Shown in pieces: positions 13,698-17,616 of a stretch of DNA of 17,616 nt. The stretch comes from a virus. Taxonomy: Duplodnaviria > Heunggongvirae > Uroviricota > Caudoviricetes. The notes under the pieces are model-generated. The model saw only the letters and a program-made list of their open reading frames with translations. It ran no database searches and had not been told where the DNA came from. The stretch is from IMG/VR virus record IMGVR_UViG_2713896768_000001, positions 1 through 17,616 of that record. The stretch is one strand, 5' to 3'. Made by a program: the position numbers and the translations under genes. Each line of letters starts with the position of its first letter. Within the stretch, counting starts at the first letter, position 1.

Positions 13698-14897
13698 ATG
13701 GCTTTGAACCTCGACACGCTGGGGCTATCGGCAACGGTAACCGCCCAGGGGATTAGTGCGCCTGATTACCAGACAATCCTTGATACACTGACCAGCTATT
13801 TCAGGCAGATTTACGGTAGTGATGCCTACCTAGAACCAGACAGCAAAGACGGGCAGATGGTCGCGCTGGTGGCTCTTGCCGTGCATGACGCTAACAACAC
13901 CGCTATCGAGATTTACAACTCGTTTTCACCGATGACAGCGCAGGCCGCAGCGCTTAGCAGCAATGTGAAAATTAACGGGATCACGCGAAAAGTAGCGACA
14001 AACTCTACTGCTGACCTTCTGTTAACCGGTACGGCAGGCACGACTATCACGAATGGCTCCGCACGGGATAAAAACGGCATTATCTGGAATTTTCCAGCGA
14101 GTGTGGCGATCGGCGTTGATGGTACTGTGCTGGTGACGGCCACATGTGCGAATAGCGGTTCGGTTGCGGCGCTGGCCGGGACTATTACCACTATCAACAC
14201 CCCGACCCGAGGTTGGGTGTCGGTAACCAATCCAGTTGCGGCTACTGTCGGTTCACCAGCCGAAACCGACGCAGAGCTGCGCATTCGGCAGGGGCAAAGC
14301 GTCGCGCTACCATCGATCACACCGTTTGAAGGTGTCGACGGTGCTATCGCTAATGTTGCTGGCGTGACACGTCACAAACTATATGAGAACGACACTGGGG
14401 CAACCGACAGCAACGGGCTGCCGCCACACTCTATTTCCGCCATCGTCGATGGAGGGGATGTTACCGAGATAGCCCAGACCATCAGGGGGAATAAAGGGCA
14501 GGGAACGGCAACCTACGGGACAACTTCTGTCACAGTGCCGGATACTTACGGTAATCCTCACGTCATCAGTTTTTCACGCTCTACCGATGTGCCAATTTTC
14601 GTAGCCATTACCCTGAAAGTTTTTACCGGGTATACATCTCAAATCGGCGAGCAGATCAAACAGGCTGTTGCCGACTATATTAATGGCCTGACAATTGGCG
14701 ACGACGTTCTGCTGAGCCGTATTTATTCCCCGGCAAACCTCGGCGTTGTGAGCGGCGGGAATGCCCGCTATTACGATATTACCGACCTGCTGATCGGTAA
14801 GTCGTCTGGCAGCGTATCGGCATCAAACATTGATATTGCCTATGATGCTTCAGCGTCCTGTAGCACCGCGAATATCAGTATCACGGTGACCTCATGA
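13698..14897 (+). CDS. Baseplate J-like protein (P2 gpJ / Mu gp47 / T4 gp6 family)
   Basis: 399-aa ORF starting right after the previous stop; size and synteny are typical of baseplate J. Confidence 0.6.
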   Translation: MALNLDTLGLSATVTAQGISAPDYQTILDTLTSYFRQIYGSDAYLEPDSKDGQMVALVALAVHDANNTAIEIYNSFSPMTAQAAALSSNVKINGITRKVATNSTADLLLTGTAGTTITNGSARDKNGIIWNFPASVAIGVDGTVLVTATCANSGSVAALAGTITTINTPTRGWVSVTNPVAATVGSPAETDAELRIRQGQSVALPSITPFEGVDGAIANVAGVTRHKLYENDTGATDSNGLPPHSISAIVDGGDVTEIAQTIRGNKGQGTATYGTTSVTVPDTYGNPHVISFSRSTDVPIFVAITLKVFTGYTSQIGEQIKQAVADYINGLTIGDDVLLSRIYSPANLGVVSGGNARYYDITDLLIGKSSGSVSASNIDIAYDASASCSTANISITVTS

Positions 14898-15574
14898 GCA
14901 AATACACCGAACTGATCACTAACTACCACGCTACCAAGCCACTCTTTTTTGACCATATAGATCTGAGCACCCGCCCGCTGATTGATGTGTCCAGCACTAT
15001 GTCAGGGCTTATAACAGCCTTCGATATCGATACTGCTGTCGGTGTACAGCTCGACATCCTCGGTCTGTGGATCGGACGCAGTCGCATAGTCAGCCAGCCA
15101 ATTAGCGGAGTTTATTTCAGCTGGGACACTGACGGGCTTGGGTATGACCAGGGCATCTGGCAAGGGCCATATGATCCTGATTCTGGCTATACGACGCTAA
15201 GCGATGAGACGTACCGCATCATTCTGAAAGCGAAAATCGCTATCAACAACTGGGACGGTCGGAACGACTCTCTGCCTCCCATCCTTGACGCTGCTACCGC
15301 AGGCTCAGGCCTGAGGATGCAGATCGTCGACAACCAGGACATGACGATTTCGGTCTGGGTTTCCCCTGAAACTGATATTTCTGATGTGTCTCTCGAACTG
15401 ATCGCCGCTATCAAACAGGGCTATCTCACCGTTAAATCAGCTGGCGTATGGGCCGGTGATGTTGAAACGCCTTCGGTAGAAACACCGTCAGAAGGCTCTA
15501 AATTCTTTGGGTTTGATATGGATAACGAATACATCGGCGGGTTCGATGTTGGAGCATGGGGGACAATACTCTAA
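14894..15574 (+). CDS. Baseplate/tail protein (P2 gpI / Mu gp48-like, DUF2612-type)
   Basis: 226-aa ORF with ATGA overlap to the J-like gene; positioned immediately upstream of the tail fibre gene. Confidence 0.5.
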   Translation: MSKYTELITNYHATKPLFFDHIDLSTRPLIDVSSTMSGLITAFDIDTAVGVQLDILGLWIGRSRIVSQPISGVYFSWDTDGLGYDQGIWQGPYDPDSGYTTLSDETYRIILKAKIAINNWDGRNDSLPPILDAATAGSGLRMQIVDNQDMTISVWVSPETDISDVSLELIAAIKQGYLTVKSAGVWAGDVETPSVETPSEGSKFFGFDMDNEYIGGFDVGAWGTIL

Positions 15575-16515
15575 TGGCAATAAACAACTTTAAACCTTTC
15601 GCGCTTGATCCGAACGCTAACGTCACCTCACAAGCTGACTGGGAAGCACTTCCGGCTCTGCTTTCAGGGTTTACGGCAGGTAAAGCATCCAGCGCACAGG
15701 TCAACAAAGCCATTCGACAGGCCAGCTTTATTGCGGCAGCGCTTGCGCAGTACACAGCCAACAAAAGTGGGCTGGACGTGCTTGATGATGGTGACCTGAA
15801 CGGCTTTATCTCCAAAATGGGAACCGCTTTCGGGAAGGATTTCCAGGCACTTGATGCCACGCTGACGGCATTGGCAGGGCTCGCAACAGGTGAAAATAAA
15901 CTCCCGTATTTCACTGGAAATGATACAGCAGCGCAGACTGATTTAACTTCTGTCGGCCGCGACATTATTGGTAAAAGCACTATTGCTGACATTCTCACAT
16001 ACCTTGGTTTGGGAGAAGGCTCTGCATTACCTGTCGGTGTGCCTGTTCCGTGGCCTTCCGCCACTCCGCCGACAGGCTGGCTAAAATGCAATGGTGCGGC
16101 TTTTTCTGCTGAAGAATACCCGGAACTGGCAAAGGCTTACCCGACAAATAAATTGCCTGATTTACGCGGTGAATTTATTCGTGGCTGGGATGATGGGCGT
16201 AGTGCGGATGCGGGGAGAACAATATTATCCGCTCAGGGCGATGCCATACGTAATATCTATGGTGAGTTCAAGACTGTAAACACCGAAAATTATTCAATAT
16301 GGGAAGTAGCAAGCTCGTTTAAGGGAGCAGTGGTGCCTTTGAGTCCCTCTACAAACAATAGTTATTTCTCCTTAACCAGAAGTATGGTGACAGAAAGGTC
16401 CGAGGGCGGTGTTTACCCAAAAGTGATTGGCCTTGATGCTTCAAGAATTGTTCCAACTGCAAACGAAAATCGACCCCGTAACATTGCCTTTAATTATATC
16501 GTGAGGGCTGCCTGA
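15574..16515 (+). CDS. Tail fibre protein with C-terminal phage tail-collar domain; the C-terminal about 170 aa lie inside the invertible segment
   Basis: The ATG at 15574 overlaps the upstream stop (TAATG); the track start at 15556 is 6 codons upstream in the same frame. The collar-type motif …PVGVPVPWPSATPPTGWLKCNGAAFSAEEYPELAKAYPTNKLPDLRGEFIRGWDDGR… and the ending …RPRNIAFNYIVRAA are typical. A hix/gix-like site sits at codons around Tyr-Leu-Gly-Leu-Gly-Glu. Confidence 0.7.
   Translation: MAINNFKPFALDPNANVTSQADWEALPALLSGFTAGKASSAQVNKAIRQASFIAAALAQYTANKSGLDVLDDGDLNGFISKMGTAFGKDFQALDATLTALAGLATGENKLPYFTGNDTAAQTDLTSVGRDIIGKSTIADILTYLGLGEGSALPVGVPVPWPSATPPTGWLKCNGAAFSAEEYPELAKAYPTNKLPDLRGEFIRGWDDGRSADAGRTILSAQGDAIRNIYGEFKTVNTENYSIWEVASSFKGAVVPLSPSTNNSYFSLTRSMVTERSEGGVYPKVIGLDASRIVPTANENRPRNIAFNYIVRAA
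15992..16017. other. Left crossover site for a Gin/Hin/Pin-family DNA invertase: TTCTCACATACC-TT-GGTTTGGGAGAA
   Basis: Two 12-bp half-sites in inverted orientation (10/12 matching) around a 2-bp core, with 17/26 identity to the remembered gix site TTCCTGTAAACCGAGGTTTTGGATAA. An inverted copy appears at the window end, and a visible composition change begins near here. Confidence 0.6.
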
Positions 16516-17120
16516 TGGATAAAGCTATATTAAATAAGGAACTCATCGCCACAAAGGCGGGAGATATTACCGTTTATAATTATGATGGTGAAACACGAGA
16601 ATATATTTCCACATCAACCGAATATCTTGCTGTGGGTGTCGGTATCCCGGCATGTTCCTGTTTAGATGCTCCTGGCTCATATAAAGCTGGTTATGCAATT
16701 TGCCGTTCTGCAGATTTTAACTCATGGGAATATGTGCCAGACCATCGCGGTGAAATCGTCTATAGCACCGAAACAGGAGAATCAAAAGAAATCACAGCTC
16801 CGGGTGATTACCCTGAAAAGACAACCACTATCGCCCCGTTAACGCCATACGATAAATGGGATGGTGAGAAATGGGTGACGGATACCGAGGCACAGCATAG
16901 AGCAGCAGTAGACATGGCAGAAACACAGCGGCAGTCGCTGATTGATGCTGCAATGGTTTCCATTAGTCTGATTCAACTGAAATTGCAGGCCGGGCGGAAG
17001 CTGACGCAGGCAGAAAACACCCGACTTAACGCCGTGCTGGATTACACTGACGCGGTGATGGCAACAGATACCAGCACCGCGTCAGATGTCATCTGGCCAG
17101 TTCCTCCTGAGACGGTTTAA
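16515..17120 (+). CDS. tfa: Tail fibre assembly protein (Tfa)
   Basis: 201-aa ORF whose start overlaps the fibre stop (TGATG). The C-terminus …LNAVLDYTDAVMATDTSTASDVIWPVPPETV matches the conserved Tfa C-terminal pattern seen in lambda/P2/Mu-type assembly chaperones. Confidence 0.7.
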   Translation: MDKAILNKELIATKAGDITVYNYDGETREYISTSTEYLAVGVGIPACSCLDAPGSYKAGYAICRSADFNSWEYVPDHRGEIVYSTETGESKEITAPGDYPEKTTTIAPLTPYDKWDGEKWVTDTEAQHRAAVDMAETQRQSLIDAAMVSISLIQLKLQAGRKLTQAENTRLNAVLDYTDAVMATDTSTASDVIWPVPPETV

Positions 17121-17376
17121 TCTCAATCAGAATGGGTTCTCCCTTCTCGTTAACAGATATTTCCATTCCTTCAGGGATTTCAGATGCAGTAAAAAACCAG
17201 TTATCTTCTGGTAATTCAACAGCCCCGGTCACGTCATGAAGACCGGGGATTACTTCAGTCAAAGTAACAGGATTAAACAGGCGCACAATAAACCCTCCAG
17301 GAAAAAGCACTTGTTGATGGTGTTCCGTCGTACATCTGGCAGCGGACATAAAAACCGGTATTAGTGACCTGGTCAT
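17089..17376 (-). CDS. Minus-strand ORF downstream of the alternative fibre domain: possible short tfa' or frame-disrupted remnant
   Basis: 95-aa track ORF, but its first 34 codons overlap the Sv' reading frame and no convincing RBS/start follows the Sv' stop. Its 3' end overlaps the + strand tfa by 32 nt. It ends …EIKPSQEELAR. Coding status is uncertain. Confidence 0.25.
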   Translation of the reverse strand: MTRSLIPVFMSAARCTTEHHQQVLFPGGFIVRLFNPVTLTEVIPGLHDVTGAVELPEDNWFFTASEIPEGMEISVNEKGEPILIEIKPSQEELAR

Positions 17377-17616
17377 CCACGATCATTGAAACGTGAACGT
17401 TATTAGATGTGCCCCCATAATCCGTTCCTATTCTTTCCGCTATGCTGATAAAACGTGAAAGCTTAGGTAGCGCAATTGGATAAACGACTTTAGCCAGTCC
17501 ATTATCATTAGAACCCCCCGTTCCAAAGACTTCTATTGCACCATCTGACCAGCGTATCCACGCACCATTGGCATTAGCTCCTCGCTGAATGACATATCTG
17601 GCTTCTCCCAAACCAA
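17273..17616 (-). CDS. Alternative tail fibre C-terminal variable domain (Sv'-like), 5'-partial: open to the window edge, silent in this orientation
   Basis: The - strand frame is open from the window end to the stop at 17273-17275. The track start is a TTG, and the reading frame continues through the crossover site in the same frame as the fibre constant region. Confidence 0.5.
   Translation of the reverse strand, partial: GLGEARYVIQRGANANGAWIRWSDGAIEVFGTGGSNDNGLAKVVYPIALPKLSRFISIAERIGTDYGGTSNNVHVSMIVDDQVTNTGFYVRCQMYDGTPSTSAFSWRVYCAPV
17603..17616. other. Right crossover site for the invertase, truncated by the window end (TTCTCCCAAACC-AA…)
   Basis: The last 14 nt of the window are the exact reverse complement of 16004-16017 (TTGGTTTGGGAGAA), i.e. 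the first half-site plus core of an inverted copy of the left site. The rest would lie beyond the window. Confidence 0.55.

Follow-up and report, generated by a model that had tools for sequence, protein, structure and literature searches.

The silent half of an invertible tail-fibre segment at the end of the window (the whole 17,616-nt stretch of viral DNA analysed here) contains a genuine gene for a 65-residue protein, at positions 17089–17286 of the minus strand, which is coupled to the alternative fibre frame that precedes it. The product is likely to be an acidic accessory protein of a Gp53-like fibre tip, a minimal chaperone or cap that is homologous to the N-terminal domain of tail-fibre assembly (Tfa) proteins. 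The initial annotation had left open whether this silent module had decayed through a frameshift or encodes an unusually short assembly factor. The latter is the best-supported reading, in the form of a single-domain relative of the Tfa N-terminal domain, although the length and start of the product differ from those initially given. The features of the region are as follows.

15556–16515, plus strand: expressed fibre gene, 319 aa, constant to ~16005, followed by a variable tip with a Collar domain
15992–16017, no strand assigned: left crossover site TTCTCACATACCTTGGTTTGGGAGAA, centre TT at 16004–16005, inside the fibre gene
16515–17120, plus strand: classic tfa of the expressed cassette, 201 aa, Pfam Caudo_TAP match with E=2.3e-29
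17089–17286, minus strand: small gene, GTG start, encoding a single-domain protein of 65 aa, 7.3 kDa and pI 4.2
17273–17616, minus strand: silent alternative fibre tip, ~113 codons, distantly of the Gp53-like_C type and truncated within the crossover site where the window ends
17287–17376, minus strand: spurious 5' extension of the 95-aa ORF, which is the fibre C-terminus in another frame and is unconserved
17294–17298, minus strand: Shine–Dalgarno sequence GGAGG, 7 nt 5' of the GTG and within the fibre codons Trp-Arg (TGG AGG)
17603–17616, no strand assigned: right crossover half-site TTCTCCCAAACCAA, matching the right arm CTTCTCCCAAACCAACGTTTAAGAAAA in locus L001

Start site and product of the small gene

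The arrangement of reading frames described in the initial annotation was reproduced. In the ORF listing, the longest minus-strand ORF after the alternative fibre frame spans 17089–17376 (95 aa, ATG); the fibre frame has no stop between the window end and the TAA at 17273–17275, where it terminates; the two frames overlap by 104 nt (17273–17376); and the ORF runs 32 nt (17089–17120) into the 3' end of the convergent tfa. The accompanying statement that this ORF lacks a convincing start and ribosome-binding site proved incorrect. An in-frame GTG lies at 17286, 30 codons into the 95-aa ORF, and the sequence upstream of it, cctGGAGGgtttatt, contains the GGAGG motif. RefSeq/PGAP annotates exactly this 65-aa ORF as the 'hypothetical protein' WP_001236015.1 on 99–100% identical DNA of E. 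coli prophages. The fibre stop and the GTG start overlap by 14 nt, a typical coupled arrangement.

The start is common to orthologues. Those of Cronobacter, Kosakonia, Yersinia and other genera have their start codon (ATG) at the same position, with the same 14-nt overlap and a GGAG(G/T) motif, which reads GGAGG in the window, L004 and L007 and GGAGT in L003 and L009. The Kosakonia (L007) and Yersinia (L009) loci carry an in-frame stop one codon 5' of this ATG, so that a longer product is impossible there and the start is fixed. Over its first 30 codons, the 95-aa ORF reads the end of the fibre gene in a different frame, and neither the sequence nor the openness of this stretch is conserved. 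The longer ORF is an artefact that arises when the first start codon following a stop is taken as the beginning of the gene, and the genuine product is the 65-aa protein from 17286, not the 95-aa protein from 17376.

The core of the small protein comprises residues 1–56, while residues 57–65 form a variable tail that enters the antisense of tfa. AlphaFold2 run on the family alignment predicted a beta-rich fold of five strands and one short helix (pLDDT 88) with a low-confidence tail. A terminator-like hairpin with a T run is located inside the small ORF (17196–17212, minus strand) and is probably due to chance. Scanning of 16400–17616 identified no sigma-70-like promoter, and the three terminator-like sites in this interval showed no excess over the shuffled expectation of 1.5 ± 1.2.

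The invertible segment is intact and switching

The small gene and the alternative tip are part of a Pin/Gin-type invertible segment that is intact and switching. The complete pair of ~26-bp inverted crossover sites is seen in L001 and L006, whereas the last bases of the window are the central AA dinucleotide of the right site, the rest of which lies beyond it. A window end at the crossover centre would fit a contig break arising from mixed segment orientations in the sequenced population. A serine recombinase/Resolvase gene is located directly beyond the segment in L001, L016, L004–L006, L024 and L025; the window ends short of this position. The alternative tip matches Pfam Gp53-like_C (E=4.7e-4, profile positions 2–80 of 84) and phrog_2557 (E=1e-15). 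Simulated inversion joined the 150 constant residues to this tip in frame, generating a 263-aa fibre, and full-length fibres with the alternative tip are found in genomes in the ON state.

Both orientations occur in natural isolates. The equal-length genomes of E. coli DG341-1 and DG342-2, which belong to one chicken isolate series, encode identical flanking proteins and are apparent clone-mates, carry the segment in opposite orientations (463-aa fibre and 65-aa ORF, ON, versus 519-aa fibre and 201-aa Tfa, OFF). Both orientations were also observed when L006 was compared with L005. The crossover sites, the in-frame inversion and the ON and OFF genomes show that the alternative module is live and not decayed.

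In megablast comparisons, the similarity of the window's tfa to the widespread tfa of HK97, P2-like phages, SfIV and others ends at 17098, 22 nt before its stop codon, which places the final three codons of the small ORF (Ala, Arg, stop) in foreign antisense DNA. A mosaic joint lies at 17098/17099, inside the 3'-3' overlap; the final 7 tfa codons belong to the rarer cassette, as does the small ORF apart from its own last three codons. This rarer cassette is present in 138 of 5426 E. coli genomes.

A conserved family under purifying selection

A search of 5.8 billion proteins identified 141 homologues of the small protein, mostly of 57–65 aa, in Escherichia, Enterobacter, Kosakonia, Salmonella, Cronobacter, Hafnia, Yersinia, Citrobacter and Pseudescherichia; for those of 72–90 aa, a start further upstream had been called on the same ORF. 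The 57–65-aa homologues share the N-terminus MRLFNP across at least seven genera of Enterobacterales, and the biggest cluster alone occurs on ~1000 contigs. Full-length homologues with a conserved start in related phages are therefore available for the 65-aa product. The family alignment consists of a 56-residue core with 13–14 invariant positions and a variable tail of 1–9 residues. Pairwise dN/dS between genera is 0.05–0.2, with dS saturated, and the low ratio persists after removal of the five codons shared with the fibre gene; judged by these substitution patterns, the small gene is under purifying selection. The short forms span about 45–100% identity, indicating that they are old or have arisen repeatedly.

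Among 50,697 phage records, relatives of the small protein are encoded in two, S164 and JK004. A literature search found no paper on this family. The fibre described in a paper on enterocoliticin is of another kind and depends on Caudo_TAP.

Genomic context of the small gene

In the near-family loci examined, the small gene always stands directly after the fibre gene, with the 14-nt overlap present in the window, L004–L011 and L019, and this layout suggests that the two genes are co-transcribed. A Kosakonia sacchari P2-like prophage (L007) shows the order J, I, fibre (387 aa), 61-aa ORF, a GC-rich hairpin with a T run that was judged terminator-like by eye, and sheath, with neither a Tfa nor an invertase. 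A 527-aa fibre followed by a 57-aa ORF is found in a second P2-like element (L019), and in both elements the small gene is the sole occupant of the P2 gpG (Tfa) slot. Similarly, a 58-aa relative follows a 365-aa fibre-like gene at the end of the module in L021, and in Yersinia enterocolitica (L009) the small gene comes after a fibre of 294 aa, within a baseplate module of the Mu-like type. Cronobacter-type P2-like phages carry the same 64-aa protein in both orientations, with either a 464-aa fibre and the small ORF or a 523-aa fibre and a 198-aa Tfa.

Comparison of the window (13698–17616) with L001, L009 and L016 placed the cassette of tip and small ORF in three tail-module types, which are P2-like, Mu-like and the baseplate J/gp47 plus DUF2612 type of the window. 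The last of these is found in E. coli EH09-18-41 as a prophage adjoining yciI/tonB. The occurrence in three module types shows cassette exchange between unrelated myophage lineages. In the Yersinia enterocolitica locus (L009:5175–5415), a 240-nt gap separates the fibre and its 57-aa ORF from a resolvase, and a second cassette is absent; Tfa C-termini gave very weak matches in minus frames (E 0.2–0.4), which might represent the remnant of a lost convergent tfa. In E. coli F2_407_2_2 (L002:4436–5140), a rearranged P2-like prophage contains an IS26 ~0.3 kb 5' of tfa, which separates tfa from the early genes (integrase, cox), and the silent Collar tip and the invertase are absent there.

Homology to the N-terminal domain of two-domain Tfa proteins

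Searches of Pfam and NCBIfam gave no match for the small protein, and Caudo_TAP (PF02413) was not matched at E<=1 by either the 65-aa or the 95-aa product. The small protein matched phrog_5400, a group of unknown function, with E=2.6e-23 over profile positions 1–66 of 145 only, and gave a weak match to a Tfa PHROG. A profile search of 1.8 billion representatives revealed further short proteins together with relatives of 123–192 aa that carry the domain at residues 1–57, and these longer relatives explain the partial coverage of phrog_5400. The domain is fused to Caudo_TAP in P0133 (E=1.5e-12), P0140 (1.5e-7) and P0152 (7.6e-5), to Phage_tail_APC (PF16778) in P0142 (above the gathering score) and in P0144 and P0137 (below it), and to DUF4376 in P0156. 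Phage_tail_APC is also present in P0161, in which the small domain aligns with residues 77–114 and not with the N-terminus. Gp1 of Cronobacter phage JK004 (128 aa; tblastn E=2e-6) is another two-domain relative and follows a Gp53-like_C tip.

By sequence, the small protein is a homologue of the domain that makes up the first ~57 residues of short two-domain Tfa proteins. For Mu and Pam3, one report (PMC9608196, citing North et al. 2019) describes two Tfa domains, of which the N-terminal one is variable and binds the fibre tip, whereas the C-terminal one is conserved and helical and trimerises. The homology to residues 1–57 of the two-domain relatives, taken together with this domain model, indicates that the small protein corresponds to a stand-alone Tfa N-domain. 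It ends 8–9 residues after that domain and has no conserved helical C-domain. No same-strand remnant of a Tfa C-domain was detected by tblastn in any frame downstream of the small ORF in the window and four other loci, and the sole C-domain signal there is the convergent tfa on the plus strand.

More distant comparisons gave little or no similarity. Alignment of the family profile with Mu U, Mu U', the window's 201-aa Tfa and e14 TfaP by hhalign revealed none, and hmmsearch with the enlarged family profile returned only 7–9-bit matches, to the S164 Tfa and to ORF47 of Pantoea phage LIMEzero. The fold search of the PDB with the small-protein model gave no match, and no superposition on the solved N-terminal beta-sandwich of Mu Tfa or Pam3 gp25 (5YVQ; Pam3 gp24–gp25 complex) was obtained. 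Its best matches in BFVD were marginal and included LIMEzero ORF47.

The partner tips exhibit weak but consistent end-to-end matches to Pfam Gp53-like_C, most of them below the gathering score (E 1e-2 to 1e-5), with the Yersinia and LIMEzero tips scoring above it. The tips located 5' of P0133 and P0140 resemble that of the window (pairwise E=1e-4 and 4e-6, respectively). Across 11 loci, tip identity and N-domain identity correlate with a Spearman coefficient of 0.42; because the pairs are not independent, this value speaks for cassette linkage only and is not evidence of contact. Within one tip subgroup, the 58-aa single-domain protein of L021 (3222–3398) and the 131-aa Caudo_TAP protein of L013 (398–793) have N-domains that are 52% identical and tips that are 57% identical. 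The co-occurrence of a short and a two-domain form in this subgroup suggests that the C-domain was apparently lost or gained more than once, so that more than one lineage seems to lack it.

Comparison with known systems

The closest counterpart is the P-segment of e14 in E. coli K-12 (stfP-tfaP / tfaE-stfE, PinE), with a crossover core of the TTGGTTTGGGAGAAGG / CCTTCTCCCAAACCAA type as in the window; the published e14 repeat has the same crossover core (PMC12529663). Both segments have a convergent two-cassette layout in which the 3' ends of the accessory genes overlap, by 29 nt in e14 and 32 nt in the window. In e14, StfP (Gp53-like_C, E=8e-16) and TfaP (137 aa) face TfaE (200 aa) and StfE (Collar), so that both systems pair a Collar tip with a Tfa of ~200 aa in one cassette and a Gp53-like_C tip with a short accessory protein in the other. 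A serine invertase is adjacent in e14, as in the loci homologous to the window. In contrast to the 65-aa accessory protein of the window, TfaP keeps the Caudo_TAP C-domain, and the N-domains of the two proteins have no detectable similarity.

The G segment of Mu and the C segment of P1 are broader counterparts of this switch. The accessory genes of the window differ from Mu U and U', both of which are full length (175 and 177 aa) and do not overlap. The two-domain Tfa proteins Mu gpU, P2 gpG, lambda Tfa and Pam3 gp25 are, like the small gene product, encoded directly after the fibre. In size and predicted secondary structure, the small protein resembles residues 1–55 of Pam3 gp25 in their published description (PMC9608196), but it is missing the helical C-domain, a proposed trimeriser, that defines the two-domain family.

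LIMEzero ORF47, annotated as 'tail fiber assembly protein', resembles the small protein in its length of 60 aa and its start with MRYF, and follows the T7-type fibre ORF46, which has a Gp53-like_C tip (32.9 bits; L018:4836–6459). Comparison with the family gave a Foldseek (BFVD) probability of 0.87 with a TM score of 0.52–0.55 and an hhalign E value of 6.5e-4. These values no more than suggest homology, the similarity being marginal (7.5 bits by hmmsearch). Unlike the source of the window, LIMEzero is a lytic podovirus without an invertible segment, and its ORF46/ORF47 pair is a suggestive, independent example of the pairing between a Gp53-like tip and a small protein.

T4 gp57A, a general fibre chaperone of 79 aa, is a very small phage protein that is required for fibre assembly; it is helical, and its gene is not known to stand beside a specific tip. 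In contrast, the small protein of the window is predicted to be beta-rich and is tightly tied to one tip type, and no sequence relationship between the two was found.

Proposed mechanism and alternative explanations

Flipping of the ~1.6-kb segment (16005 to ~17615) joins the constant N-terminus of the fibre (150 aa) in frame to the alternative tip, and the small gene then follows the fibre in the late operon, replacing the 201-aa Tfa. In the proposed mechanism, the product of the small gene would serve as a minimal chaperone or cap by binding to the fibre at its distal tip, either during or after assembly. It would contribute no trimerising C-domain, and the Gp53-like tip would presumably be independent of that domain. 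We infer the physical binding to the tip and the role in assembly or capping from homology and linkage. In the current model, the key chaperone activity resides in the C-domain, and a protein that consists of the N-domain alone might therefore have no chaperone function at all. The broader proposal, that a widespread family of N-domain-only Tfa proteins suffices for the assembly or capping of Gp53-like tips and that the C-domain is dispensable there, is a tentative one that may well prove wrong.

Several other explanations were weighed against a functional 65-aa accessory protein. A frameshift-decayed module, in which a true Tfa' would be split over two minus-strand frames, was suggested by the initial impression of two overlapping frames, and it is refuted by the conserved short ORF with its fixed start, the purifying selection, the in-frame inversion and the lack of Tfa-like coding in the other minus-strand frames downstream, where no C-domain remnant is left. 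The layout with the 14-nt overlap is kept across genera and the module is ON in natural isolates; the 65-aa protein is also identical between the ON and OFF genomes of the apparent E. coli clone-mates, which likewise contradicts decay, and this explanation is hardly credible. The 95-aa ORF from the ATG at 17376 has in its favour that it is the longest ORF and that some gene callers choose longer starts (72–90 aa), but its extension is unconserved and closed by a stop in Kosakonia and Yersinia, the Shine–Dalgarno sequence is conserved at the internal start, and translation of the extension would require 104 nt of dual coding with a conserved fibre C-terminus, which makes it a vanishingly improbable product. 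It is also very improbable, if less so, that the small ORF is the dead remnant of a two-domain Tfa that was cut by the recombination joining the two cassettes and was kept through its linkage to the tip. The end of tfa similarity at 17098, which leaves the last three codons in foreign antisense DNA, the variability beyond residue 56 and the existence of two-domain relatives would fit such an origin, whereas a dN/dS of 0.05–0.2 between genera, the conserved start and Shine–Dalgarno sequence, the occurrence of short forms without a convergent tfa (with a hairpin and T run after the Kosakonia one) and their identity range, which makes them old or repeatedly arisen, argue against it.

A different possibility is that a genuine small protein attaches to the tip without assisting its folding, acting instead as a virion tip cap or as an adhesin or specificity modifier, or else that it has an unrelated role. 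The small protein lacks the C-domain that is thought to drive trimerisation, and chaperones that remain bound or act as caps are documented in two reports (PMC10579305; PMC9608196); such cap, adhesin or specificity-modifier roles have been proposed for the chaperone 'caps' of Alteromonas, Mu Tfa and T2 gp38. In addition, AP22 gp53 was expressed alone in E. coli in a report that mentions no chaperone, and its C-terminal fragment is trimeric (bioRxiv 10.1101/518761), which suggests that Gp53-like tips may need no folding helper. The position in the gpG slot and the Tfa N-domain homology, however, fit a cap and a chaperone alike, and we regard a purely non-chaperone role as unlikely.

Implications

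The identification of the 65-aa product resolves an annotation ambiguity that recurs in more than 1000 enterobacterial contigs, where the gene appears as a 'hypothetical protein' or with a wrong start, and it shows that the host-range switch has a functional silent half. The tail-fibre assembly proteins also gain a minimal relative with a single domain. If the small protein works alone, nature supplies a test case for the two-domain Tfa model, which assigns binding to the N-domain and trimerisation to the C-domain. The small protein would also be a very small helper to co-transfer with Gp53-like tips in the host-range engineering of phages and tailocins. Should the N-domain-only reading hold, the C-domain, which is regarded as the core of Tfa function, would be dispensable for Gp53-like tips.
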